Positions 46,588 to 60,448 are shown, counted from the first letter of the stretch. The stretch is DNA of 64,000 bases from Cyanobacteria bacterium P01_A01_bin.123 (GCA_039815185.1 JBCBZT010000008.1:1-64000); one strand, 5' to 3'. Program-made: numbers and translations. Notes: generated by a model not told the origin, from the letters alone.

Positions 46588-47964
46588 TCAACATTCAATC
46601 ACATTTACCGCCAAACCACCCCGAGAAGTCTCCTTGTATTTCTCGTGCATATCCGCCCCCGTATCGCGCATGGTTTTGATCACCTTGTCCAGATGAACAC
46701 AGTGCTGTCCATCCCCCTTCAGCGCCATTCGCGCCGCGTTGATCGCCTTCATTGCCCCCATGGCATTGCGTTCAATGCAGGGTACCTGCACCAAACCGCC
46801 AACCGGATCGCAGGTGAGTCCTAGATTATGCTCCATGCCAATTTCGGCAGCATTTTCGACTTGCTCAGGGGTGCCGCCCAGGACTTCGGCTAGGGCACCC
46901 GCAGCCATAGAGCAAGCCACCCCCACTTCCCCCTGACAACCCACATCCGCCCCAGAAATCGACGCATTTTCCTTGTAGAGAATGGCGATCGCGCCTGCTA
47001 CCAATAAAAACCGAACAACGCTGTCCTCATTGGCACCGGGGCAAAACCGGCTGTAATAGTGCAGCACTGCCGGGACAATCCCTGCGGCCCCATTGGTCGG
47101 GGCGGTTACCATCCGCCCTCCGGCAGCGTTTTCTTCATTCACCGCGATCGCATACAGGTTGACCCAATCCAAGACAGTCAGCGGATCGCTCAGGGACGAT
47201 TCGGGACGACTTTTGAGGAACTGATAGAGGGACGGGGCACGGCGTTTGACTTGCAACCCACCGGGCAGAATACCCTCGGTGCGACATCCTCGCGCCACAC
47301 AGGCTTGCATGACATCCCACAGCTTCAGCAGTTCTAGCCGGATCTCTGCCTCCGATCGCCACACTTTCTCGTTCTCCAGCATGAGTTGGCTGATCGAGAA
47401 ACGTTCTTGCTGACACAACACCAACAAATCAATGCAATTTTTGAACGGATAGGGAATGGGGGACCTGTGCAGCCGCAGTCGATTGATGCTGACTGCGTTT
47501 TCATCGACGACAAACCCACCACCCACAGAATAGTAGGTACGCTGCTTGAGAATTCCCTCAGCTTGATCGAAGGCAGTAAACACCATGCCGTTGGGGTGAA
47601 AGGACAAGGGCTTCCAGTGAAAGCACAAATCAGTTTTAGGATTAAACGCTATTGCATGCCGCTTTAACACCCATAGCGATCGCGTCACCTGAATCCGCTG
47701 CAGGTAAGCCTCTACTAAATCAGGATTTACCGATTCGGGGGAATCTCCTTCCAACCCAAGTAGCACAGCGCGATCGCTGCCATGCCCCCGCCCCGTTGCC
47801 CCCAGCGAACCGTGCAGGTCAATTTGAATCCGGTTGACTAGGGATAAAAGCCCGTCAGTTGCCAACCCTTGGGCAAATTGCAATGCGGCTTTCATCGGCC
47901 CCACGGTGTGGGAACTAGAGGGGCCAATGCCGATTTTGAAGATGTCGAAAACGCTGGTAGACAT
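46588..47964 (-). CDS. sdaA: L-serine ammonia-lyase (Fe-S, single chain)
   Basis: [44 protein letters not shown]. Confidence 0.97.
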
Positions 47965-47969
47965 AATTC

Positions 47970-48905
47970 CTAGGGCATCATGCCGCGTAAATTATTAGTC
48001 GGATTGTCAAACATAGGCGGGGTGTCAATTGTTTCACCCCGGTACACCAGCCCAACCCCAATGGCAGTAACGCCTAAACCCAAGGCATCTCCTAACGTCA
48101 GCACATCACCAAACAACAGGAAGCCAAGTCCTAAAGTGACAGGGGGCGACAGGTAGGCCAGACTCGACACCCGCGCCGCTGTGCGATATTCCAACAGCTT
48201 GAACATCAGGCCATAGGCCCCAATCGATAGCACCACCACTAACCAGGCCAGCGCAAAGGTAAACTGCCCCGTCCATTGCACCTGCAAATCTTCAAAGAAA
48301 ACGGCCAGGGGATATAGAGCGATCGCAGAAATCACGGCCTGCACAAACAGGCTAGGAATAATCGGCAATGCCTTACCGAATTGACCGCGATTGATATGAC
48401 GTTGATACAGCGTAGCTAAGGTCAAGCTAATGGTGGAGATAAACGGCAGTCCGTAGCCCACCCATGGCACGTTAGTTTGCATACTCACCTTAGTGCCGAC
48501 TACCAGCACAACACCGACTAAACCAATCACCATGCCTACCCACTGCATTGGCGATACCCGCTCTCCCAAAAGTGGCCCAGACAACACGCTTGTGGCCATG
48601 GGTTGCAGAGCGGTAATCAGCGCCACAATCCAGGGAGAAACGCCAAGCGCGATCGCCCCAAACACTGCACTTAGCCAAATCGCATGGGCAAGCAACCCGA
48701 TCAGGGCAGACCGCGCGATCGCCGCCCGGTTATTCAAGCGCAATTCCCGCCGATAGAGCAGCCAGACAAACAACAGCACGGCGACCAGCACATAGCGAAT
48801 AAACAGCAGCGAGAATGGCCCCGCATAGGGCAACCCATACTTTGCGCCAATGAAGCCAGAACTCCAGAGCACCACAAACAACATTTCGAGTGCCACAATG
48901 CCCAC
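47970..48905 (-). CDS. DMT/EamA family transporter
   Basis: [15 protein letters not shown], about 10 TM helices; AAGGAGG RBS before GTG 48905. Confidence 0.9.
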
Positions 48906-48976
48906 GAATAGAGCCTCCTTAAAATTGAATCGCCTACTGTAGAAGCACAGCGCTTTAGCCAACGACGGATCTGAGC

Positions 48977-51436
48977 CTACAGTAGTTTTTCAACCACTGT
49001 TGCAGCAAGGGACTGCCCGAAGTATTCCACGCTAACCTGAGTGCCCGATGTGGTGTAGCCCAAGGGCAGATAGGCATAAACCACACAGCGCCCTAGGCTG
49101 TAGCCATATCCTGCACTGGTGGCATACCCCAACACCTTGCCGTCCTGGGCCAAGACAGGTTCCTTGCCCATGACCACAGCGGTTGGATCATCCAAAGTCA
49201 AAAAGCAGAGCTTGCGACTGGCGTATTCCTGCCGACGCAGCAGCGCGTCTTTGCCAATGAAATCTCCTTGATTCGGCCTGACGGCAAAGCCTAAGCCTGC
49301 TTCATAAGGGTCATACTCGGTGTGAATATCGCTACCCCAAAGCAAAAAGCCTTTCTCTAACCGCAGGGTTTCAAACGCGCCTAACCCAGCGGCGATTATG
49401 CCGTGTTCCTGACCTGCTGCCCATAGCAAATCCCAAAGCTTCAGGCCAGATTCAGTTGGGGCATAGATTTCCCAGCCTGCTTCACCCACGTAAGACACGC
49501 GGGAGGCCACGACCGGAATATTGCCGATGTAGAACTGCTGGTTAGTAAAGAATTTGAACGCGGGTTTCGAGACATCGATTTGCACCAGGGACTGCAACAC
49601 CGCCGGAGCCTGTGGCCCCCATAACCCGACACAGCAATAGCTGGAAGACACATCAGCAATCTGCACCGATCCATCGGTCGGTAAATGAGTTCGCATCCAG
49701 GCCAGATCGTGGCCATGAACTGAACCGCCCGTGATCACCCAATATTTTTCAGGCCCCAATCGGCTTACTGTGAGGTCACACATGATGCCCCCATTGGCAT
49801 CTAGCATGGCGGTGTAGATCACTTTGCCCACTGGCTTATCCACGTTGTTGGCGCAGAGATTTTGCAAATAGGCGACTACACCAGGGCCGGTCACCTCAAA
49901 TTTGGCAAAGGGGGTGAGGTCGTAGAGCGCCACGCGATCGCGAGTGGCCAAATGCTCCGCCCCTTGAATCGGTGACCAGTTTCTAGCTTCCCAACCCTGA
50001 CGCTCAGGAATGGCATATTCCTCCAAAAGCTGGGCATTGGCTTCAAACCATTGGGGTCGCTCCCAGCCAGCACTAAAGACAAACTGTGCCCCCAGTGCTT
50101 GCAGGCGGGGATAAAACGGACTGACCCGCAACCCCCGTGAATGGGTTTGCTGATCAAGCGGGTGAATGATGTCGTATACCTCGTCATACTGTTGCGCCCC
50201 GGCTTTGAGGATGTAATCCGCACTTCTGCAAACCTCCGAAAAGCGGTGAATATCCATTTCATGGAGGTCAAAGCTGGGCACCCCCGTCGTCATCAGTTCT
50301 GCAACGACTTTGCCCACACCGCCCCCGTGGGTCACCCAAACGGCTTCTGCCACCCAAAATCCTTTAGCCCTAGGCGATTCCCCAATCACTGACCCACTGT
50401 CAGGTGTGAAGGAAAACATGCCGTTGATTTTGTAGGGCAGTTCTGCATCGGCCAGAGTGGGAAACAAGGCTTTGGTTGATTCCCAGGCAGCGGTGAAATG
50501 TTCTTCGGTAAAAGGCTTCACCGAGGGCATCACGGGGGCTTCTGCAAACGGCAAAATGTTGTCCGGGTCCACGAGTAAAGGCTCATGCTGATAAGACCCA
50601 ATCCCCCAACAGTCTCCATGCTGCCGGAAGTACATGGCGTGATCTTGATGGCGCACAATGGGCTGCACGACCTCATCCGTCGCGCCCGCTAATTCTGCAA
50701 TCGGGCCAGTTTTCACATACTGATGCTGCACAGGCGTCAGGGGAATAATCTCCCCAACCATGCGACCCACACGCGGCCCCCAGATACCAGCACACACCAA
50801 TACCTTTTCGGTTTCGATGCGGCCTTGATCAGTGACAACCGCGTTTACCTGACCGTTAACCACCTCAATGTCCATCACGGTGGTATGGCCGTAAAATTCA
50901 GCAGCCCCAGCTTCTTTGGCCTCCGTTGCCATTGCCTCCGCCGCTCGTAAAGCTTTAGCAATTCCATCCGTTGGCACATAGTAGGCCCCGAGAATCTGAG
51001 TCTGATCAATCAGCGGCACTTTTGCTTTGACTTCCGAGGGTGTCAGCAAACAAGCGCCTTCAATCCCCCAAGACTTAGCCCAACCCAACTTGCGCTTGAG
51101 TTCTTGCATGCGGGCTTCGGTGTAAGCGACTTCAATGCCGCCCACCGGATAAAACGCTGGGCCTGCTTCGGTGCTCAGTTGGCTGTACAGCTCAACGGTG
51201 TACTTTGCCAATTGGGTCATGGTCTTAGAAGGATTGGTCTGGAAGATCAAGCCCGGTGCGTGGGAAGTTGAACCACCCGTCGCAAACAATGGCCCTTGCT
51301 CAACCACCACGATATTCTTCCAGCCCAGTTTTGCCAGGTGATACGCCGTGCTACAGCCGACAATGCCCGCACCAATCACAACAACAGCCGCGTCGGTCTT
51401 CATGGATAGTTTCTCCGCTTGGGTAAGTGTGGACAA
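48977..51436 (-). CDS. Dimethylglycine oxidase/dehydrogenase (FAD domain plus GcvT folate-binding domain)
   Basis: GAGIVG, GGSTSHAPGLIFQTNPSKTM (flavinylated-His motif as recalled for Arthrobacter DMGO), AVWVTH, SYVGEAGWE, LRLEKG; start may be ATG 51403. Confidence 0.85.
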   Translation of the reverse strand: MSTLTQAEKLSMKTDAAVVVIGAGIVGCSTAYHLAKLGWKNIVVVEQGPLFATGGSTSHAPGLIFQTNPSKTMTQLAKYTVELYSQLSTEAGPAFYPVGGIEVAYTEARMQELKRKLGWAKSWGIEGACLLTPSEVKAKVPLIDQTQILGAYYVPTDGIAKALRAAEAMATEAKEAGAAEFYGHTTVMDIEVVNGQVNAVVTDQGRIETEKVLVCAGIWGPRVGRMVGEIIPLTPVQHQYVKTGPIAELAGATDEVVQPIVRHQDHAMYFRQHGDCWGIGSYQHEPLLVDPDNILPFAEAPVMPSVKPFTEEHFTAAWESTKALFPTLADAELPYKINGMFSFTPDSGSVIGESPRAKGFWVAEAVWVTHGGGVGKVVAELMTTGVPSFDLHEMDIHRFSEVCRSADYILKAGAQQYDEVYDIIHPLDQQTHSRGLRVSPFYPRLQALGAQFVFSAGWERPQWFEANAQLLEEYAIPERQGWEARNWSPIQGAEHLATRDRVALYDLTPFAKFEVTGPGVVAYLQNLCANNVDKPVGKVIYTAMLDANGGIMCDLTVSRLGPEKYWVITGGSVHGHDLAWMRTHLPTDGSVQIADVSSSYCCVGLWGPQAPAVLQSLVQIDVSKPAFKFFTNQQFYIGNIPVVASRVSYVGEAGWEIYAPTESGLKLWDLLWAAGQEHGIIAAGLGAFETLRLEKGFLLWGSDIHTEYDPYEAGLGFAVRPNQGDFIGKDALLRRQEYASRKLCFLTLDDPTAVVMGKEPVLAQDGKVLGYATSAGYGYSLGRCVVYAYLPLGYTTSGTQVSVEYFGQSLAATVVEKLL

Positions 51437-51465
51437 CGAATCAGGATGAGGTTGGGATAGCGAAA

Positions 51466-51590
51466 GGGGCAGGGGAAGCAGGGGAGGTAAGGGAAGCGAA
51501 AGAAAAAGAAGTAAATGAGCGGTTGGTTAAACACCTTAGCTAAGACCCAATCCTGCTTTTCTCCCCCTGCTCCCCTGGCTTCCCCCGCAC
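51466..51590. repeat. Inverted purine/pyrimidine short tandem repeats (STRR-like)
   Basis: GGGGCAGGGGAAGCAGGGGAGG ... CTCCCCCTGCTCCCCTGGCTTCCCC. Confidence 0.55.
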
Positions 51591-51591
51591 T

Positions 51592-51626
51592 CAGATCCCA
51601 GGGTTCTTCGAGAACCCTGGGATCTG
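51592..51626. repeat. Perfect hairpin, cyanobacterial dispersed palindrome
   Basis: CAGATCCCAGGGTTCT-TCG-AGAACCCTGGGATCTG. Confidence 0.8.
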
Positions 51627-51630
51627 GGCC

Positions 51631-52890
51631 TCACGAATCAACTGCCTGGGCAATCTTTTGCTGGAAGCGATAAACGGTTTGCTCCAACGCTGGTGAAAAG
51701 CAGCCGCCGTCGAAGCCATAGGACTTACGTCCCACCTGCATGCGTTCGATCATGTCGATGTCTTCGTCATTGGTGACTTTCCACAAATCGATGGGGAGGT
51801 GACGTAGGGCTTCATTCTCCGGCGTCATCGCATCATCACCCACGAAATAGAACACCATGCGTTCTGCCGCTTGCTCGGGCTTGAGGGGATTGACCATAAA
51901 CACCAGAAAATAATCGGGGTGAACACCCAACATCAAGTTGGGAAAAACCGTGATGTATTCGGCGACGGTCTGCTTGCCTATGGCCTCCAAATTAGGAAAG
52001 GTGGGTAGGGAACGTCCGTCTACCACACCACTTTTGTAAAGCAAACTGCCCTGACCCACATGGATATCGCCGACGTCAAACCCAAAGTGGTCTTCCATGC
52101 GAGAGCAGCCATTTAGAGCCGGATGCACCCAGCTCAGGTGATAGCTTTCAGAAAAGTTTTCGACTGCCAGTTTCCAGTTGGCGTTGCATTGCAGATTAAC
52201 TTCTCTAGATTCACGCCGCAGCAGACTAAAGTCGTAGCCTGACCAGCGCTCAATCGCAGGCTTTAGGTATTCCGCCAGGGGTGGGGCGTCGCCAGATAGA
52301 TTAACAAAGACTAAATCTAGCCATTGTTCACAGCGAATGGAAATGAGCCCTTTGCTGGCCCGATCAAAGCCGGGATAAGCGTCTTTGTAATAGCCGCCGA
52401 AGTGGGGCGTACTTTTCAGCGTACCGTCTAGCTTGTACGTCCAGGAATGATAGGGGCAGCGGAGGTTGCCTTGCACATTGCACGGCTGATCAACCAACTG
52501 TAAGCCTCGGTGGCGACAAACATTGTGGAACGCTCGCAGCTGATGCTGATCGCGATCGCCTGTTTGAGCTGATCGACGACCCTCGCGTACCAGCACAATC
52601 GGCATACCTGCCACTTCGGTGGGATAAACATCGCCGGGATTAGGCACATCCGATGCCAAGCCGACACAGACCCAATAGTTGCTAAAAACCGTTTGGCGTT
52701 CTCGTTCGAGATACCTGGAACTGGTGTAAGCATCTGCTGATAAACCACGCTGTTGATAAGGCGCGAGGTCAATGATTGAAGCCCCTAAACGTGACTCCGG
52801 CGTCTGGAGCCCCAGAGGAGTACTTACGAGAGGACTACTCACTAGAGATGCTGCACTGGATTGGGAGGTAACTGCATTTTCCTGGGTCAT
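51631..52890 (-). CDS. Rieske non-heme iron oxygenase alpha subunit (quaternary-amine type)
   Basis: Rieske CRH...CPYH, NWKLAVENFSESYH...VH mononuclear site, EDIDMIERMQ. Confidence 0.9.
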   Translation of the reverse strand: MTQENAVTSQSSAASLVSSPLVSTPLGLQTPESRLGASIIDLAPYQQRGLSADAYTSSRYLERERQTVFSNYWVCVGLASDVPNPGDVYPTEVAGMPIVLVREGRRSAQTGDRDQHQLRAFHNVCRHRGLQLVDQPCNVQGNLRCPYHSWTYKLDGTLKSTPHFGGYYKDAYPGFDRASKGLISIRCEQWLDLVFVNLSGDAPPLAEYLKPAIERWSGYDFSLLRRESREVNLQCNANWKLAVENFSESYHLSWVHPALNGCSRMEDHFGFDVGDIHVGQGSLLYKSGVVDGRSLPTFPNLEAIGKQTVAEYITVFPNLMLGVHPDYFLVFMVNPLKPEQAAERMVFYFVGDDAMTPENEALRHLPIDLWKVTNDEDIDMIERMQVGRKSYGFDGGCFSPALEQTVYRFQQKIAQAVDS

Positions 52891-53002
52891 ACGCCGCCTC
52901 ATGGGTCGTGAACCTAATGACTGGGATAGATTAATTTGATGGGTAATCGGTCTGAACTTTGGCTCCGACAGGCGAAAGTTCAGAAGAAATAGAACACTTA
53001 TA

Positions 53003-53020
53003 AACTTGTAATTACAAGTT
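53003..53020. promoter_or_regulatory. HutC/GntR-type operator
   Basis: Perfect palindrome AACTTGTAATTACAAGTT (TGTA-N2-TACA core); partial copy near 53317. Confidence 0.7.
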
Positions 53021-53668
53021 CTGAATCTAGACAATAAAATCTGTCTCTACTTAAAAATTGTTTCCTGTTTGACAATTTTTAGATCTTTTCCAGAATTTTT
53101 CTGACATTTGGCATACATCCGGAGTGTCGCCCTGGATCGACCCGTCAGCAAGCATTTCAAGGCATCAAAGCAGGATAATCTACTGGCTTATTGCCAGATA
53201 ACCAGATCCTTTGAAGAGTCCATGGAGTCAGGTTTCTAAATATTTCTGGGTGGTATAGAAAAGTTCAAGATTTACTTGACCGCCAGCCCTTATTATCAGG
53301 GAATGCTGAAATTTAAAACTTGTAGTAACAGCTGTATATCTGAAGACAGAAGTCCCTTTCCGTTCAATTTATCTTTGTGTTCTAAAGTTGCATTTGAAGT
53401 TCTCGATGTGCTGTGCTAACGAGGTTTCAAAACAACGGCAGTTATAGCGAAGTAAATTCAGTTATTCATGCTTTTGTTAGCTCAAGTGCCTATAAACCTT
53501 GTCCAGGTTCGGACTTGTTAGATATGAAGCGTTTTGGTAGTTGTCGCTACTTGAGTAAGGGTTGATGATCCCGAGTCTGCACGTTATTGAAGCGAACAGT
53601 ATTGAAGCAAAAAGTTGTTTTGTCGGAGCGTACGATTATGTGCGCTGTTTTTGGAGTAAACGTTACCT

Positions 53669-55339
53669 ATGACTCATGAAGACCCTAGTGTTAAGGGGCA
53701 GGAACCTTTTCTGCCGCCCGTAGGCCGTCCTCGAAGCCAACGCCAACCCGGCGATCGCAATATGGCGGGTTATGGCTTTGATTTCCATCCGGAAGTCTTT
53801 TTGGTCTCCGCCGGACTGATTTTTCTGTTTGTCGTAATGACGCTGATTTTTCGAGAACCCGCTGAGACCGCATTTGGTAATATCCAAAGCTTCATTGCCA
53901 ATGCCATGGGTTGGTTTTTCATTCTGGCAGTCAGCATTTATCTCGGGGTTGCCGTTATTTTGGCCTTTAGTAAGTTTGGTAAAATCCGCCTGGGTGGGCA
54001 AAATGCCAAGCCTGAGTTTCCAACTTTTGCCTGGGTTGCCATGCTGATCAGCGCGGGCATGGGGATTGGGCTAATGTTCTGGAGTGTTGCCGAACCGATC
54101 TACCACTTTCAGGATCCTCCAGCTCTGATTGGCACGATTGAACCCCTGTCTCGGGAGGCAGCTCAGCAAGCTTTAGGCATTACTTATTTCCACTGGGGCT
54201 TACATGCGTGGGGAATTTATGCGCTAGTCGGCCTCGCGCTGGGCTTTTTTGCCTACAACTGGGGATTACCGCTGACGATTCGCTCGGTGTTTTATCCCAT
54301 CCTGGGCGATCGCATTTATGGCTGGCCCGGCAACATGATTGATATTTTGGCCGTTGCCTCTACGCTGTTTGGGTTGGCGACCTCCCTAGGATTTGGGGTA
54401 CAGCAGGTCAATGCTGGGTTTAACTTTTTAATGGGGTTACCAGTGAGTGTCCCCATTCAGGTCGGGCTAATTGCCATCATTACTGGGTTTGCAACAGCTT
54501 CTGTCGTGTCTGGGTTAGATGCGGGTGTGCGCCGTCTCAGCGAACTCAACATGATTTTGGCGGCTGTCTTTATGGGGTTTGTGTTGCTGGTGGGGCCGAC
54601 CCTGTTTGTTTTGGGGTCTTTTGTTGAAACGGTGGGCTACTATACTGCTTCTCTACCTACCCTCAGCTTTTGGACTGAAACCTTTGACGGCACAACCTGG
54701 CAGAACGGCTGGACTGTATTTTATTGGGGCTGGTGGATTTCCTGGTCTCCTTTTGTGGGTATCTTTATTGCCCGTGTTTCTAAAGGTCGCACCGTTCGGG
54801 AATTCATTTTGGGTGTGCTGCTGTTGCCGACCCTGCTAACGTTTCTGTGGATGTCGGTGTTTGGCGGGACTGCCCTGTCTATGGAACTCGGTGAGTCCCA
54901 GGGGTTGATCAGTGGAGCTGTGGGCGAGAATGTGGCGACAGCCCTGTTTGTCATGTTGCAGCAGCTACCCCTGACTGGGATTACTTCTTTTGTCGGCATT
55001 GTGTTGGTTGTCGTGTTCTTTGTGACGTCCTCTGACTCAGGCTCTTTGGTGGTTGACAGTCTGACCTCTGGCGGCAAGCTCGAATCTCCAGTGACTCAGC
55101 GCGTCTTTTGGGCGGTGATGGAGGGGGTTATCGCGGCAGTGCTGTTGTTAGGAGGTGGCTTACAGGCGCTCCAAACAGCCTCTATCGCCACCGGACTGCC
55201 CTTCGCAATTGTGTTGTTGGTGATGTGTTACAGCCTATATCGGGGGCTAAGTCAAGAGCTAGCTATGCTTGAGGCTCAAGCTTTACAGCGTACTGAAACG
55301 CTTCCTGACGCGATACCTGAAGAAGCGATCGCCCGATAA
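53669..55339 (+). CDS. BCCT family transporter (BetP/OpuD-like)
   Basis: AGMGIG, FHWGLHAW, WTVFYWGWWISWSPFVG, SKGRTVREF, TSSDSG. Confidence 0.95.
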   Translation: MTHEDPSVKGQEPFLPPVGRPRSQRQPGDRNMAGYGFDFHPEVFLVSAGLIFLFVVMTLIFREPAETAFGNIQSFIANAMGWFFILAVSIYLGVAVILAFSKFGKIRLGGQNAKPEFPTFAWVAMLISAGMGIGLMFWSVAEPIYHFQDPPALIGTIEPLSREAAQQALGITYFHWGLHAWGIYALVGLALGFFAYNWGLPLTIRSVFYPILGDRIYGWPGNMIDILAVASTLFGLATSLGFGVQQVNAGFNFLMGLPVSVPIQVGLIAIITGFATASVVSGLDAGVRRLSELNMILAAVFMGFVLLVGPTLFVLGSFVETVGYYTASLPTLSFWTETFDGTTWQNGWTVFYWGWWISWSPFVGIFIARVSKGRTVREFILGVLLLPTLLTFLWMSVFGGTALSMELGESQGLISGAVGENVATALFVMLQQLPLTGITSFVGIVLVVVFFVTSSDSGSLVVDSLTSGGKLESPVTQRVFWAVMEGVIAAVLLLGGGLQALQTASIATGLPFAIVLLVMCYSLYRGLSQELAMLEAQALQRTETLPDAIPEEAIAR

Positions 55340-55358
55340 CCTAAAAGCCCGATAGCCT

Positions 55359-55391
55359 AGAAACCGGGTTTCTTGAAGAAACCCGGTTTCT
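55359..55391. repeat. Perfect hairpin, cyanobacterial dispersed palindrome
   Basis: AGAAACCGGGTTTCTT-G-AAGAAACCCGGTTTCT. Confidence 0.8.
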
Positions 55392-55423
55392 GAGACAGTT
55401 TTCACAAGAAACATAACGGAACT

Positions 55424-56581
55424 ATGGTGCAACATTTTGATGCCATCGTGATTGGTGCGGGGGGCGTCGGCAGTGCGGCTGCTTACTACCTTGCCAAAGC
55501 GGGTCAGCGCGTCCTGCTGCTAGAGCAGTTTGAACTCAACCACCAAAATGGCAGTTCCTACGGCTACTCCCGTGTCATCCGCTATACCTACGACAATCCT
55601 ATCTATATCAACTTGATGCGGGATGCCTATCCCCTCTGGTTTGCGCTACAAGCAGAAGCGGGAGAACAGCTCTATGTCAAAACGGGTGGGTTAGACTTTG
55701 GGTTCCCTGATGTGGATACCTTCCAGGCGCTTAAGGCCAGTATGGATGAAGCTAGGTTGGACTACGAATATCTAACCCAACATGAAATTCACCAGCGCTA
55801 CCCTCAGTTTGCCTTGAAAGACGGGATGGCAGGCTTGTTTCAAGCGGATGCGGGGTTACTGCGAACGTCGCGCTGCGTCTTAGCCCATGTGCGCTTAGCC
55901 CAAGAACGGGGCGCAACGGTGCTCGATCAAACGCCAGTGGTGAAGGTGACGCCAGTGGTAAACGGGGTTGAAGTGCAGACGGCTAAAGAGACCTTCACTG
56001 GCGATCGCATTGTGTTGACCGCAGGCAGTTGGGCCAAGGGACTCTTAGCAGAGCAGGGCATCGACTTACCGCTAAAAGTTATGCCCTGCCAGCTAGGCTT
56101 CTACCAGCCCGATCAGCCTGCGAATTTTGAACCGGGCACGATGCCAGTCTTCTTCGCCCACATGAACGACGACTACGGCGAAATGCCCTACGGCATCCCC
56201 CACGAAGATCCCAGCATCGGCTTTAAAATCACCACCTTCTATGGTTGGGACACGGTGAATGCCCCCAGCGAGGTAGACTATACCCCCAGCCAAGACTGGA
56301 CAGAGCGGATTCGTAATTTTGCCCGCGAGTATATTCCAGGGGCGGCTGGGCCGCTGATTAGCACCCGCCGCTGCCTCTACACTCTGACGCCCGACAAACA
56401 TTTCATTGTCGATCAACACCCCAGCTATCCCCATGTGGTGATTGGGGCTGGCTTTTCTGGCCATGGGTTCAAGTTCACGACGCTGACGGGCAAAATGCTG
56501 GCCGATCTAGCAATGAATGGCAGCACCCCCCACGACACTAGCTTGTTTAAAGTCGCCCGGTTTCAGCCTGTTGAGGTGTAA
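55424..56581 (+). CDS. Monomeric sarcosine oxidase / N-methyl-amino-acid oxidase (SolA-like)
   Basis: GAGGVG, GSSYGYSRVIR, CLYT (FAD-linked Cys position), GFSGHGFKF. Confidence 0.88.
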   Translation: MVQHFDAIVIGAGGVGSAAAYYLAKAGQRVLLLEQFELNHQNGSSYGYSRVIRYTYDNPIYINLMRDAYPLWFALQAEAGEQLYVKTGGLDFGFPDVDTFQALKASMDEARLDYEYLTQHEIHQRYPQFALKDGMAGLFQADAGLLRTSRCVLAHVRLAQERGATVLDQTPVVKVTPVVNGVEVQTAKETFTGDRIVLTAGSWAKGLLAEQGIDLPLKVMPCQLGFYQPDQPANFEPGTMPVFFAHMNDDYGEMPYGIPHEDPSIGFKITTFYGWDTVNAPSEVDYTPSQDWTERIRNFAREYIPGAAGPLISTRRCLYTLTPDKHFIVDQHPSYPHVVIGAGFSGHGFKFTTLTGKMLADLAMNGSTPHDTSLFKVARFQPVEV

Positions 56582-56659
56582 CCCTTATCCACTTTGTACA
56601 GTCGATTTCCGGAGGGAATGCTCTGTTTGCCGATAGGATAAACATGAGTAATAGCAAGC

Positions 56660-57421
56660 ATGACGTCATCTTTTATGGTTCCGAGTGAGCCAAGCACCAC
56701 CGCTAAGCAACCCCTGCATATCGTTATCTCAGAGAAGCTCAAGGCCCAAATCGAGGCAGGCCAGTATAAGCCAGGGCAGCGTTTACCCAGTGAATATGAT
56801 TTGGGAGAAAAATTTGGCGTGAGTCGCACCACCATTCGACGAGCAGTTGCCAACCTGATTCAGCAAGGGCTAGTGACCACCCAACAAGGGAAGGGGATCT
56901 TTGTCAGCGATCGCCGCAAGATCAGCTTCCCTATGTCTAACCCACTGATGCAGTTTGATGTGGTTCTGAGGGAGCAGGGGTATGCGGGGCGAATTCATTC
57001 GTTGCGGTTTCAGCTGACCAGCGCCCCCGCTGATGTGGCGTGCAAACTCAAGTTGCCGAGCCAAACAGCCCAAGTCTACTGGCAAGAAAAAATCATCTAC
57101 GCTGACGATGCTCCCATTGGTCTAGAAGTGGATTATTTCCCTGAGGCATTGGGGCATTCTTTAACCGATCAACTGCAACAGGGATTTACTTACAGCACTT
57201 TGGCGATGAATGGAATGACGCTCAATGCGGCCAAGGTGAGTTTGGAAAGTGTGCCTGCAAACTATGAACTGAGTGAGTATTTAGCGGTCCCGCTGGGCAT
57301 GCCGCTGCTGGTGTTTAACTATGTGATGTATTGGGGTAAACATGCCCCCGCATTTTGTGGCAAGACGTTATTCCGTTCTGACTGGACCTGCTATACGTCT
57401 GAAATCGAGATCAGTACTTAA
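56660..57421 (+). CDS. GntR family regulator, HutC/UTRA subfamily
   Basis: PGQRLPSE...FGVSRTTIRRA...QGKGIFV plus UTRA-length C-terminal domain. Confidence 0.92.
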   Translation: MTSSFMVPSEPSTTAKQPLHIVISEKLKAQIEAGQYKPGQRLPSEYDLGEKFGVSRTTIRRAVANLIQQGLVTTQQGKGIFVSDRRKISFPMSNPLMQFDVVLREQGYAGRIHSLRFQLTSAPADVACKLKLPSQTAQVYWQEKIIYADDAPIGLEVDYFPEALGHSLTDQLQQGFTYSTLAMNGMTLNAAKVSLESVPANYELSEYLAVPLGMPLLVFNYVMYWGKHAPAFCGKTLFRSDWTCYTSEIEIST

Positions 57422-57459
57422 AATGGGGCATAGCCAGGTTTATGGGAGTGTAACCCTTG

Positions 57460-58803
57460 ATGGTCGGTTCATCATCAGTGCGGGCGACGACGCTGAAGCA
57501 AGCCTTTCGGGTATGCAACTTGGGGGCGCTGACCGGGGCTGAAATCAAGCGCTACTATGTAGAACTTTCTGCCGCCCGCAGTCAAGCCGCGATCGACAAC
57601 GTCAGTACACAACTCGATTTTTTAGAACCGGGGGAACCCGCAGCGATTCTGTTCACAGGGCATCGGGGCTGTGGCAAGAGTACGGAGCTTAAGCGGATTC
57701 AGCGCCATTGGGAACTGCACTATGAAGTGATCTACATCAAGGCGACGGACGAACTCGACATCAACGACACAGACTACAAAGACATCTATCTGGTAGTGAT
57801 CCAATATGTGACGGCGGCGATTCAGGATTGGGGGCTAAAGCTAGACCCAAAGCTAGTGAAAGAATTTGAGGATTGGTTTAAGCAGATCACGGGCGAAACT
57901 GAGGAAAAAGTTGAAAGTTCTGTCAGCGTCAGCGGTGAGGTGGAGGCTGGGCAGCAGTTTCCGTTTGTGTTTAAGCTGATGGTGAAGCTGCTATCGCAAA
58001 TCAAGGGGTCGGATACGTACAAGCGCACGATTCGCGAAGACTTGCAGCAAGGTTTTTCTCGCTTGCAAGAGAATACCAATAATCTGCTCAAGGATGCCTA
58101 TGCCAAGCTGCGGGAAAAGAAACCCAACTGCAAAGGCTTTTTGATCATTTTGGATAATTTGGATCGGGTGCCACCGCAGGTGGGGGAGCATCTGTTTTTG
58201 AAATACGCCAATCAACTGCGGGAGCTGCACTGTGTGGCAATCTACACCGTGCCGATTTCGGTGATTTATTCGGGCCAGAATTACAGCAATGCTTTTGGTG
58301 AGCTAAAGATGATGCCGATGGTCAATATCTATCGCTATCAGCCTGACCAAGTGGATTTGGCATACGACTTGGCAGGGGTAAAACTGATGGCGACGTTGAT
58401 TGAGCAGCGGGTGCAGGTGGATGCATTGTTTGAAACGCCAGATTTGGTAGAAGAACTGGTGAAATTTAGCGGCGGGCATATGCGGCAACTCATGCAGCTG
58501 ATGCGCAATGCCTGCTTGACCGCCGGCACCCGAGGCCACAACAAAATCACCGCCGCCGACATTCAAGAGACGGCGAATCAAGAACGCTTTAACTTTGAAC
58601 GCAATATTCCCAGCGATCACTACCCGATTTTGGGGCAGATTTGTCGCACTAAGGAATCACCCCGCGAGCTGGAAGCACAGCAGAAGATGCAGTCTATGCT
58701 ATTTAATATCACCGTGCTGGAATACGTCACTGGCCCGAAGCGGTGGATCTATGTGAATCCCCTCGTGAGGCAAATCGATGCCCTCCAAGCCGTCCTGGAT
58801 TAA
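57460..58803 (+). CDS. P-loop ATPase (STAND/KAP-like)
   Basis: Walker A GHRGCGKST, Walker B LIILDNLDR, SGGHMRQL, VNPLV. Confidence 0.8.
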   Translation: MVGSSSVRATTLKQAFRVCNLGALTGAEIKRYYVELSAARSQAAIDNVSTQLDFLEPGEPAAILFTGHRGCGKSTELKRIQRHWELHYEVIYIKATDELDINDTDYKDIYLVVIQYVTAAIQDWGLKLDPKLVKEFEDWFKQITGETEEKVESSVSVSGEVEAGQQFPFVFKLMVKLLSQIKGSDTYKRTIREDLQQGFSRLQENTNNLLKDAYAKLREKKPNCKGFLIILDNLDRVPPQVGEHLFLKYANQLRELHCVAIYTVPISVIYSGQNYSNAFGELKMMPMVNIYRYQPDQVDLAYDLAGVKLMATLIEQRVQVDALFETPDLVEELVKFSGGHMRQLMQLMRNACLTAGTRGHNKITAADIQETANQERFNFERNIPSDHYPILGQICRTKESPRELEAQQKMQSMLFNITVLEYVTGPKRWIYVNPLVRQIDALQAVLD

Positions 58804-60448
58804 GAAAACTTTGAGCCGCTTTATTCCCCCTTTTTTAAGGGGGGCAGGGGGGATCGCGACAAGTGCCCACACCCCACAGACAACACCCGACCCAACCGAG
58901 GAATTTATCAGCCTCAACGAAGAAGCCATTGAAAAGCTGGCAACCTTCATCGACTTTGCCGAAGGCTTCACCATTGGCTTTGTGGAGATCAACTTTCTTG
59001 CCGATCTCGACATCCTGATTCAGCATTTGGCAACCCATCCCGACTGTGCCGACGCTCAGTTTATAACGCTGACCCTAGACGACCCGAATCTGAGGTTTCT
59101 AAAAGATGAACTCGTCAAGCGGTTGGCAAACGAAACCTTAGTACCCGACAAAAAGCCGATTATTTGGATTCAAGGGTTAGAACAGTCTATTCACATGTCG
59201 GGAGATTATCCCCCGATGCTGAACGACTTGAACTTTGTGCGCGATGCCTTTGTGGACTCCGTGCCCCACCCGGTGCTGTTTTGCCTACCCGATTACGCCA
59301 TTAACCGGGTTATTCAATACGCCCCGGACTTTTGGAGTTGGAAGTCGGGTCTGTTTCGGTTCAAAACCCGTCCTTCAACCCAGAAATTTGCAGCGGATAG
59401 CACCATCTTTTCTGACCGGATTCGTGAAAGTCTGTTGCTAGAAGACTGGCAGGAACGCATTGACCAACTGGAACGGCTGGTCATGGAGTATCGGCCTTCT
59501 GGCAGTCCAACGCCACCAGAGCTAGAGAATTATTGTTGGGTTTTATCAGAGTTAGGGATTGCCTATCGTGGGCAAGGCAATGTTACACAAGCTGCTTTCT
59601 ACCTCCGGCAAGCCATTGATATCACTGAGAATCAGACGAGCGCACAATCGCAGCGGGCATTAGCTTTACATGAGCTAGGCATTCTCAAAGCCAACCAGGG
59701 CGAGATTGAAGATGCGATCGCCCTCTACCAACAATCCCTCGACATCAAAGAACAAATCGGCAACATCCATGACAAAGCCGCCACCCTGCATCAACTTGCC
59801 ATCCTCAAAGCCAACCAGGGCGAGATTGAAGATGCGATCGCCCTCTACCAACAATCCCTCGACATCAAAGAATAAATCGGCGACATCAAGACTAAAGCTG
59901 CTACCCTGCATCAACTCGCCATCCTCAAAGCCAACCAGGGCAAGATTGAGGATGCGATCGCGCTCTACCAACAATCCCTCGACATCACAGAACAAATCGG
60001 TGACATCCAGACCAAAGCCGCCACCCTGCATCAACTCGGCATTCTCAAAGCCGACCAGGGCGAGATCGAAGACGCGATCGCCCTCTACCAAGAAGTTCTA
60101 GCTATCGATGAACAAACTGGCAACATCCAGGGCAAAGCCGCCACCCTTCATCAACTCGGCATGCTCAAAGCTAACCAGGGCGAGATTGAGGACGCGATCG
60201 CCCTCTTTCAAGAATCCCTCAACATCACAGAAAAAATCGGCGACATCCAAACCAAATCTATGACGCTTCAGTGGATTGGGGGATTAGCCGCAGATGTTCA
60301 AAAGGACTATGAGACTGGGATTCAATGCTTCCGAGAATCCCTAGAAATTTTGCAGCGCATTGGCTCCCCGAAGGCCGAAAATGCTGAGCGTCAGTTAGCA
60401 CAGATTCAAGCACTGGCGGCTGAGCAGGCAACAACTTCTGAACCATAA
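58778..60448 (+). pseudogene. TPR protein with degenerate ATPase-like N-domain, interrupted by one in-frame stop
   Basis: ORFs 58778-59875 and 60161-60448 share a frame; TAA at 59873 replaces CAA seen in neighbouring repeats. Confidence 0.85.
59665..60262 (+). repeat. About five tandem 120-bp TPR-coding repeats
   Basis: Unit ...CTCAAAGCCAACCAGGGCGAGATTGAAGATGCGATCGCCCTCTACCAACAATCCCTCGACATC... recurs every 120 bp. Confidence 0.95.

Follow-up and report, generated by a model that had tools for sequence, protein, structure and literature searches.

Whether an oxygenic phototroph can consume glycine betaine is the question raised by a cluster of seven genes at positions 46588-57421 of a 64,000-nt stretch of DNA from the marine, filamentous Cyanobacteria bacterium P01_A01_bin.123 (GCA_039815185.1, JBCBZT010000008.1:1-64000). 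This stretch is referred to below as the window, and plain coordinates are positions within it. In marine ecology, the making and hoarding of betaine is ascribed to cyanobacteria and its consumption to heterotrophs. Analysis of the cluster, of the 8.09-Mb genome that carries it and of related genomes suggests that its products probably bring glycine betaine into the cell and convert it to pyruvate and ammonia. The enzyme of the first step would likely be a Rieske oxygenase that belongs to an uncharacterised family and has no dedicated reductase. A preliminary description of the window had already proposed betaine uptake and catabolism in a phototroph. The gist of that proposal, a dedicated pathway, is upheld by conservation, by gene co-occurrence and by a putative regulator-operator pair, while the first step and the substrate of the carrier are read only from gene context.

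The divergent arrangement of seven genes outlined in the preliminary description was recovered gene for gene, with coordinates, strands and named families all in agreement with the Pfam and NCBIfam matches. The features are as follows:

46588..47964, minus strand: sdaA, Fe-S L-serine ammonia-lyase (TIGR00720)
47970..48962, minus strand: EamA/DMT-family membrane transporter (Pfam EamA, 95 bits)
48977..51436, minus strand: dimethylglycine oxidase (DMGO), domains DAO, FAO_M, GCV_T and GCV_T_C
51631..52890, minus strand: Rieske oxygenase, alpha subunit only, 419 aa (Rieske and Ring_hydroxyl_A)
53004..53019, no strand: operator-like perfect palindrome ACTTGTAATTACAAGT, a conserved block and predicted regulator site
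53319..53334, no strand: operator-like imperfect palindrome CTTGTAGTAACAGCTG, within the conserved block 53313-53341
53669..55339, plus strand: BCCT-family carrier (Pfam BCCT, 640 bits)
55424..56581, plus strand: flavoprotein of the DAO family resembling monomeric sarcosine oxidase (MSOX) and N-methyltryptophan oxidase (MTOX) (Pfam DAO; TIGR01377 and NF008425 scores given below)
56660..57421, plus strand: GntR/HutC-type regulator with winged helix and UTRA domain (GntR 74 bits, UTRA 60 bits)

The genes of the left arm are separated by 5, 14 and 194 bp and those of the right arm by 84 and 78 bp, and these short gaps fit an organisation in two operons. Immediately upstream of the cluster lie psaB and psaL (identified with Pfam and NCBIfam), which mark the contig as cyanobacterial. 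The G+C content of the cluster (47-54%) falls inside the range found over the whole window (42-54%), so that there is no compositional anomaly. Each of the seven genes is present as a single copy in the genome, the sdaA and BCCT genes being the only ones of their kind. The Rieske open reading frame (ORF) extends over 51631-53034 on the minus strand, and the database gene call of 419 aa places the gene at 51631-52890; this shorter start is supported by the first palindrome, which falls inside the over-long ORF.

To follow the cluster beyond the window, two sets of genomes were used, an order sample of 173 genomes, all from one family, and a phylum sample of 401 genomes drawn evenly. Co-occurrence figures were counted by hand from tables and, with related genomes being non-independent, are descriptive and carry no statistical tests. 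The Rieske gene was found in 50 of the 173 order genomes, representing 12 of 19 genera, and in 2 of the 401 phylum-sample genomes. A DMGO orthologue occurs in those same two, next to two more distant matches with 33-34% identity, and in 53 of the order genomes. An MSOX orthologue with at least 73% identity was found in 58/173, two further genomes having a paralogue of 37-38% identity only, and sdaA in 38/173. Among the 50 Rieske-positive genomes DMGO is present in 49, the Rieske gene of the exception lying on a 2-kb contig, and the MSOX-like gene in 48. In 43 of the 50, the Rieske and DMGO genes are on the same contig and no more than about 2 kb apart; the remaining seven are fragmented assemblies. 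The sdaA gene accompanies the Rieske gene in 32/50 positive genomes and is present in 6/123 Rieske-negative ones. Conservation of the cluster therefore extends to about three in ten of the genomes in this cyanobacterial family.

Gene order was compared in 22 loci, made up of the window, 20 of the 49 other positive genomes (those with long contigs, with 20 kb taken around the gene) and locus L001; L002 was excluded as a duplicate of L101. DMGO and MSOX are present in all 22 loci, and the Rieske gene stands next to DMGO in all 22, split by an insertion in L108. BCCT was found in 21/22, the GntR gene in 20/22, sdaA beside the cluster in 12/22 and the EamA gene in 8/22. The flanking genes, psaB/psaL and an AAA-ATPase in the window, vary among the loci, which indicates that the unit occupies different genomic places. 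An arrangement that recurs in 21 other cyanobacterial loci, and whose genes co-occur over 173 genomes, is far from a product of chance.

Two features seen in some of the loci should also be mentioned. The Rieske gene of L108 (G430:C5:477468-479985) is broken into two parts separated by about 1.3 kb, one of which contains a TGA; the interruption is probably due to an insertion. Between EamA and sdaA, 6/22 loci (L115:15024-15803, L099, L104, L105, L113 and L114) have a conserved ORF of about 260 aa that matches no Pfam family and is absent from the window.

Of the enzymes of the proposed route, DMGO and SdaA are the best defined by sequence. The assignment of DMGO to its family is solid. An FAD oxidase domain is fused to a folate-binding GcvT domain in the same four-domain architecture as the Arthrobacter globiformis enzyme (1pj5), to which the protein aligns at full length (806 bits; residues 16-817 of the query on residues 5-818 of the chain). 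All four positions that align with His48, His225, Tyr259 and Asp552 carry the identical residue; these are presumably the flavinylation site (His48), the catalytic residues (His225 and Tyr259) and the folate site (Asp552). Such an enzyme would be predicted to convert dimethylglycine to sarcosine with formation of 5,10-methylene-tetrahydrofolate and H2O2. SdaA scores 716 bits against TIGR00720 (cut-off 345), which identifies it as a single-chain Fe-S L-serine ammonia-lyase, an enzyme converting serine to pyruvate and ammonia. The MSOX-like protein matches Bacillus MSOX (1zov/1el5) with 240 bits and Escherichia coli MTOX (2uzz) with 178 bits, and the residues aligned to Cys315, Tyr317, Lys348, Arg49, Arg52 and Lys265 are conserved. 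Of these, Cys315 is taken to be the flavin link and Arg52 and Lys348 the carboxylate binders. The reaction expected of it would be that of sarcosine to glycine, formaldehyde and H2O2. The EamA transporter reaches no NCBIfam model above cut-off and is regarded as an accessory gene of the cluster.

The Rieske protein has the features of an alpha subunit of its class, namely Pfam Rieske and Ring_hydroxyl_A domains together with ligand motifs. The columns C125, H127, C145, H148, H251, H256 and D377 are invariant across 17 homologues and may be read as the CxH/CxxH ligands of the 2Fe-2S cluster and the His/His/Asp ligands of the mononuclear iron. Its best solved relatives score 92-112 bits and comprise an uncharacterised Ruegeria protein (3n0q), the carnitine monooxygenase CntA and the stachydrine demethylase Stc2, while a look-up in the ESM Atlas returned generic Rieske clusters only. 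In a quick tree with SH-aLRT support only, the cyanobacterial proteins form a single clade (SH-aLRT 100), which includes sequences under the names Hyella, Pleurocapsa, Myxosarcina and Xenococcaceae. Cultured strains with a Rieske homologue in their genomes include Leptolyngbya sp. Heron Island J, cf. Phormidesmis sp. LEGE 11477, Oscillatoria sp. CS-180, Hyella patelloides LEGE 07179, Myxosarcina sp. GI1 and Pleurocapsa sp. FMAR1. A role as betaine N-demethylase, yielding dimethylglycine and formaldehyde, is suggested by gene context, since the downstream enzymes need dimethylglycine and the cluster holds no other candidate to supply it. The other first-step enzymes looked for in the genome, a GbcA equivalog and an MttB-family methyltransferase, were not found. 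The genome has one stand-alone gene resembling a homocysteine methyltransferase, which reaches 69 bits where the cut-off for betaine-homocysteine methyltransferase is 338. It is missing in 29 of the 50 genomes with the Rieske gene, occurs in 31 of the 123 negative ones, and never lies near the cluster.

Outside the cyanobacteria, the nearest Rieske proteins (49-51% identity) are those of two Salinisphaera species, in which the gene order is sdaA-soxB-soxA-soxG-AraC/DJ-1 regulator-Rieske-Pyr_redox_2/Rbx-type reductase-TRAP transporter. No canonical GbcA was found in either Salinisphaera genome. This context is a second, independent tie of the Rieske clade to the sarcosine-to-serine part of betaine catabolism.

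In a check for an adjacent GbcB-type NAD(P)H reductase, homologues of two partner reductases (of PDR/VanB and of Pyr_redox_2/Rbx type) were not detected in the 64-kb window or in the 21 other cyanobacterial loci. Both proteobacterial Rieske contexts carry a reductase, whereas none of the 22 cyanobacterial loci does. Elsewhere in the genome there are weak matches only to reductases of these types, one of them PDR/VanB-like (G000:C94:91070-92068; 23% identity, E 6e-13) and situated on the contig of the cluster at a distance of about 35 kb; as an electron donor it is possible and unsupported. As no reductase is encoded nearby, it is suggested that the electrons come from a general ferredoxin, probably the photosynthetic one, by analogy with plant Rieske oxygenases. 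Plant choline monooxygenase (CMO) is fed by chloroplast ferredoxin.

The carrier contains the motifs AGMGIG, HWGLHAWGIY and WWISW. Its closest solved relative by a wide margin is TmaT (565 bits, compared with 404 for a choline carrier and 315 for BetP), and it scores 503 bits against the BetT model (cut-off 695). In TmaT numbering, Phe154 marks choline carriers, Asp108 H+-coupled carriers and Phe329 carriers of dimethylsulfoniopropionate (DMSP), according to the portion of PMC11708041 available. The protein of the window has Tyr, Gly and Trp at positions 154, 108 and 329, respectively, together with the Na+-type GXGXG motif. These markers would exclude the choline, H+ and DMSP types and leave trimethylamine in place, and since the aromatic-box residues are common to TmaT and BetP, carriers of betaine and of trimethylamine look alike in sequence. 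The protein is thus best described as a carrier of the Na+-coupled type and a putative betaine importer.

The region between the two arms measures 778 bp in the window and 407-1082 bp in the other loci, and an alignment of all 22 such regions contains only two conserved blocks, ACTTGTAATTACAAGT at 53004-53019 and TTAAAACTTGTAGTAACAGCTGTATATCT at 53313-53341, the latter enclosing the imperfect palindrome CTTGTAGTAACAGCTG. Measured from the gene starts, the first palindrome is about 115 bp upstream of Rieske and the second about 335 bp upstream of BCCT. With up to two mismatches allowed, the pattern of the first was found in 22/22 regions (11 of them exact), and a match to the second lies downstream of it in 22/22 loci, mostly in the form ACTTGTAGTGACAACTG. 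In the whole genome the exact 14-mer CTTGTANNTACAAG of the first palindrome occurs once, and the second palindrome has one other site at up to one mismatch. Palindromes of the GT...AC type are the usual operators of GntR-family regulators, and the regulator of the cluster combines a GntR winged helix with a UTRA domain. It is therefore predicted that the GntR/HutC protein is likely the repressor of both arms, acting at these two sites, and that the cluster has a private, putative regulator-operator pair. An Rfam scan of the whole window gave zero matches, hence no riboswitch in the long divergent region. A scan of 52850-53700 with promoter and terminator consensus sequences gave two promoter-like sites where 1.6 were expected and was uninformative.

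The most economical reading of these predicted functions is a route from betaine through dimethylglycine, sarcosine, glycine and serine to pyruvate and ammonia. Betaine would be taken up with Na+ by the BCCT carrier, for which the Na+-type motif is present and the substrate presumed, and the Rieske enzyme would then hydroxylate one N-methyl group, giving dimethylglycine and formaldehyde. DMGO would oxidise dimethylglycine to sarcosine and pass the methyl carbon to tetrahydrofolate, and the MSOX-like flavoenzyme, whose family is established and whose substrate is presumed, would produce glycine. A serine hydroxymethyltransferase (GlyA) encoded elsewhere would combine glycine with methylene-tetrahydrofolate to serine, the substrate expected for SdaA by its family, with pyruvate and ammonia as products. 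The preliminary description had noted that the route needs GlyA and that the window has none, and the gene was indeed located on another contig (C82). The free formaldehyde from the Rieske and MSOX steps would be removed by a glutathione-dependent dehydrogenase (634 bits, cut-off 544) and an S-formylglutathione hydrolase (445 bits, cut-off 282), both of which are encoded in the genome; the two are widespread among cyanobacteria and were also present in the Synechococcus control. The regulator would repress both arms at the two palindromes until an intermediate of the pathway binds its UTRA domain.

A number of results weigh against glycine betaine as the substrate and have to be set beside this evidence. 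The Rieske protein scores 131 bits against the NCBIfam model for GbcA/BmoA (NF058607, cut-off 670), with a match to the N-terminal half only, nor is the cut-off reached by any of 72 relatives, scanned as clean ORFs, in other phyla. The preliminary description was right about the Rieske family, but by the NCBI model the gene does not encode a betaine monooxygenase of the GbcA type, and its role as demethylase is drawn from context. It should also be noted that no protein above the cut-off was found in the genome of the window, in the two Salinisphaera genomes, in four other proteobacterial genomes or in 14 control genomes; having matched nothing in the four proteobacterial genomes, the model may be narrow. 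Because no GbcA above cut-off was found in the scanned genomes, the tree is without a characterised member, and in it the cyanobacterial clade falls in an unresolved polytomy with the clade of Salinisphaera and a proteobacterial clade linked to aldehyde dehydrogenases. Rieske relatives of 39-42% identity adjoin aldehyde dehydrogenase genes, as on a plasmid of Phaeobacter inhibens and one of Pseudomonas. Aldehydes are therefore the probable products of some members of the wider family, formed either by C-N cleavage or in the manner of choline monooxygenase.

Further points on the same side come from the right arm. The carrier scores 581 bits against the betaine BCCT model NF047988, where the cut-off is 650, and its closest solved relative, TmaT, transports trimethylamine specifically and does not bind betaine, as stated in the part of PMC11708041 at hand. 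The earlier assignment of the carrier to the BetP type and not to choline BetT stands as far as the AGMGIG and WWISW motifs and the non-choline markers go, but specificity for betaine is not borne out in the same way. The MSOX-like protein falls below the cut-off of the sarcosine oxidase model TIGR01377 (327 bits against 480) and passes NF008425 for N-methyltryptophan oxidase (364 bits, cut-off 257). His269 of Bacillus MSOX falls in a gap and His45 is replaced by Tyr. The earlier naming as monomeric sarcosine oxidase accordingly agrees with the family, by 240 bits against 178, but not with the sarcosine model or with His269. Several genomes, lastly, contain a solitary MSOX gene without Rieske or DMGO.

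Three other explanations were weighed. The one that survives best, though regarded as unlikely, is that the same enzymes serve to reuse betaine already in the cell, when salinity drops or during starvation, and do not scavenge it from outside. Going by the title of their report, Incharoensakdi and Waditee are said to have described in 2000 a betaine-homocysteine methyltransferase route of betaine degradation in Aphanothece halophytica, and breakdown by this different enzyme reportedly follows salt downshock or starvation. Like the route proposed here it would remove the first methyl group of betaine in a cyanobacterium, but by methyl transfer in place of an oxygenase and oxidases, and the title makes no mention of a gene cluster, a transporter or downstream enzymes. 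The genome of the window also encodes an ABC osmolyte importer of the ProV/OpuC type (G000:C19:104896-108820; L120:8882-12820) with an OsmF-like binding protein, two permeases and an ATPase, and about 20 kb from it a 718-aa ORF matches the betaine-binding domain PF04069. The presence of both implies that the cell clearly deals with betaine, and fits its handling as an osmolyte. In 3/22 loci (L105:16263-17720, L115 and L117) the cluster has as a neighbour an MscS-type channel gene with a cyclic-nucleotide-binding domain; this hints at an osmotic setting and agrees with recycling. On the other side, a dedicated importer lies inside the regulon in 21/22 loci and speaks for an external supply. The synthesis genes GSMT and SDMT are not present beside the ABC transporter, though this is the only place that was inspected and no proper genome-wide search for synthesis genes was made.

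Quite improbable is the second, in which the Rieske protein is a choline-monooxygenase-like or other quaternary-amine oxygenase and choline or another betaine is imported, to be turned into dimethylglycine by enzymes that the cluster does not encode. The automatic name given to the Rieske homologues by JGI is indeed 'choline monooxygenase', which together with the failure of the GbcA model would agree with it; the pairing of the 39-42% relatives with aldehyde dehydrogenases is what a conversion of choline to betaine aldehyde would require, and the best solved relatives act on carnitine and stachydrine. However, the genome has no betaine aldehyde dehydrogenase equivalog (best match 337 bits against 669), and no aldehyde dehydrogenase was found in the 21 loci and the window, 462 kb in total. 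Use of choline would moreover still need a betaine demethylase, and none was found in the genome, while the Rieske gene adjoins DMGO in every locus. The carrier has neither the Phe marker of choline carriers nor the Asp marker of H+-coupled ones, as these are defined in the available part of PMC11708041. With no such equivalog, no aldehyde dehydrogenase in the loci and non-choline markers in the carrier, choline is an unlikely substrate of the cluster.

Very unlikely is a pathway that starts lower, the carrier importing dimethylglycine, sarcosine or trimethylamine and the Rieske enzyme catalysing a side reaction. It would be in keeping with the trimethylamine-specific TmaT as closest solved carrier and with the persistence of MSOX, with or without BCCT and GntR, in genomes that have neither Rieske nor DMGO, but Rieske and DMGO occur together in 49/50 genomes and are always adjacent. 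Trimethylamine, moreover, is no precursor of dimethylglycine, and no Tmm/Tdm-type genes were found in the cluster with Pfam and NCBIfam. As to the solitary MSOX genes, the copies in G544 and G555 have an internal TAG stop, and at L121:9529-11743 such a gene has two short pieces of sdaA (residues 189-247 and 394-456) for neighbours, Rieske and DMGO being absent from that genome. These genomes, or at least that of L121, look like products of the decay of a once-complete cluster. A parallel series of demethylations from trimethylamine through dimethylamine to methylamine was rejected, as DMGO and MSOX keep active-site residues of the amino-acid type and sdaA would be left without a role.

Oxidative consumption of betaine can be compared with known systems. 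Aerobic betaine catabolism in Pseudomonas aeruginosa and Chromohalobacter salexigens proceeds by GbcAB/BmoAB, DgcAB, SoxBDAG, GlyA and SdaB (Wargo 2008; Shao 2018; as related in the available parts of PMC9321204 and PMC12478193). The proposed cyanobacterial route would share with it three oxidative N-demethylations followed by glycine to serine to pyruvate and ammonia, a Rieske protein as the proposed first enzyme and a serine dehydratase linked to the cluster. It differs in that the Rieske protein of the window is no GbcA equivalog and has no GbcB-type reductase, in that single-chain DMGO and MSOX take the place of DgcAB and the heterotetrameric SoxBDAG, in having a GntR/HutC regulator where the other has the AraC-type GbdR, and in its oxygenic phototrophic host. 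The MSOX-like protein differs from the Bacillus enzymes 1el5 and 1zov, with which it shares 240 bits, in lacking His269 and His45. With CntA (6y8j), Stc2 (3vca) and plant CMO the Rieske protein shares a 2Fe-2S Rieske domain and a mononuclear-iron domain with no beta subunit; its similarity to these alpha-only quaternary-amine oxygenases is distant, and DMGO and MSOX stand beside it where those have a reductase and an aldehyde dehydrogenase. The carrier has in common with TmaT of Myroides profundi (8zw8) and BetP of Corynebacterium glutamicum the BCCT fold and the Na+-type GXGXG motif (PMC11708041, in part), and, numbered as in TmaT, it keeps the aromatic-box residues Trp146, Trp151, Tyr154, Trp325, Trp326, Trp329 and Met105. 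TmaT is linked to a trimethylamine monooxygenase, according to the same partial source, whereas the carrier of the window is linked to DMGO and MSOX.

In the available portions of recent texts cyanobacteria are treated as producers or importers of betaine (PMC9321204, PMC12478193, PMC12324868), and CMO is listed among the betaine synthesis genes (PMC12324868). A full-text literature search, largely outside of which lie the subscription journals, returned no publication on this cluster or on an oxidative betaine route in cyanobacteria. The preliminary description knew of no characterised cyanobacterial degradation pathway; within that search this holds for an oxidative cluster, but it is too broad overall, given the methyltransferase route known by title from Aphanothece. 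The oxygen-dependent betaine route is known in heterotrophs; the variant proposed here has a different first enzyme, one that lacks a reductase, and it is set apart further by its single-chain oxidases, by control through a GntR regulator and by its occurrence in a phototroph.

More distant relatives of the Rieske protein were found in several settings. L118 (Phaeobacter inhibens plasmid pPGA1_262, 138495-157598) and L119 (plasmid of Pseudomonas sp. MPC6) show the order LysR-Rieske-aldehyde dehydrogenase, and both have BCCT carriers; L118 also carries an 806-aa DMGDH-like flavoprotein and a PDR/VanB reductase. A riboswitch-controlled gbcAB has been described in Phaeobacter (bioRxiv 10.64898/2025.12.19.695462, part of the text), and, compared with it, no cobalamin riboswitch was found in seven loci of 38-41% Rieske relatives. 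Relatives of 30-37% identity, in SAR11, roseobacters and others, have glutamine-synthetase-like and glutamate-synthase-like genes as neighbours. Among these, the clusters of Pelagibacteraceae (L044, L046, L048 and L052) and Rhodobacterales (L037, L039, L040 and L053), with Rieske relatives of 33-35% identity, contain glutamine-synthetase-like, EutQ, alpha/beta-hydrolase, second Rieske and glutamate-synthase-like genes. Clusters of this make-up suggest a role in the use of methylated amines in abundant marine bacteria. None of the scanned relatives, those of the Pelagibacteraceae and Rhodobacterales loci included, reached E <= 1e-45 on any NCBIfam model. The wider family would thus act on several methylated amines, with a role in betaine use confined at most to the cyanobacterial and perhaps the Salinisphaera clade.

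Two observations on the window as a whole may be added. An ORF for an AAA/NACHT-like ATPase (57457-58803) and a TPR ORF (58778-59875) overlap by 26 bases in different frames, and the pair (57457-59875) may be one frameshifted STAND-type gene or two overlapping genes. Nine public sequencing runs from four studies contain all or part of the stretch. Four 'marine metagenome' runs of one study, among them perhaps the run from which this DNA came, hold at least half of its sampled words, a coral-metagenome run holds 0.31 of them and four further runs hold small shares; no RNA run is among the nine.

A further-reaching proposal can be put forward tentatively and with some doubt. It holds that the Rieske protein is the first of a family of betaine N-demethylases that is new and separate from GbcA, that its cyanobacterial members have shed the reductase and run on photosynthetic ferredoxin, that benthic marine cyanobacteria thereby use light-derived electrons to consume betaine, the commonest nitrogen osmolyte of the ocean, and that the wider 'choline monooxygenase' family is catabolic. 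If the breakdown route operates as predicted, a function would be assigned to an uncurated Rieske family that spans many bacterial phyla and has distant relatives in SAR11 and roseobacter genomes. Matches to 'CMO' in metatranscriptomes need not then signal betaine synthesis, and on the further-reaching proposal counts of 'choline monooxygenase' as synthesis in marine 'omics would include catabolic enzymes.

For the cyanobacteria themselves, the cluster, if it acts as predicted, would amount to a phototrophic sink for a compound that is abundant and carries both nitrogen and one-carbon units, in a family whose members live in mats and on reefs. The pathway would generate H2O2 and formaldehyde within an oxygenic cell, which would pose questions of its own.

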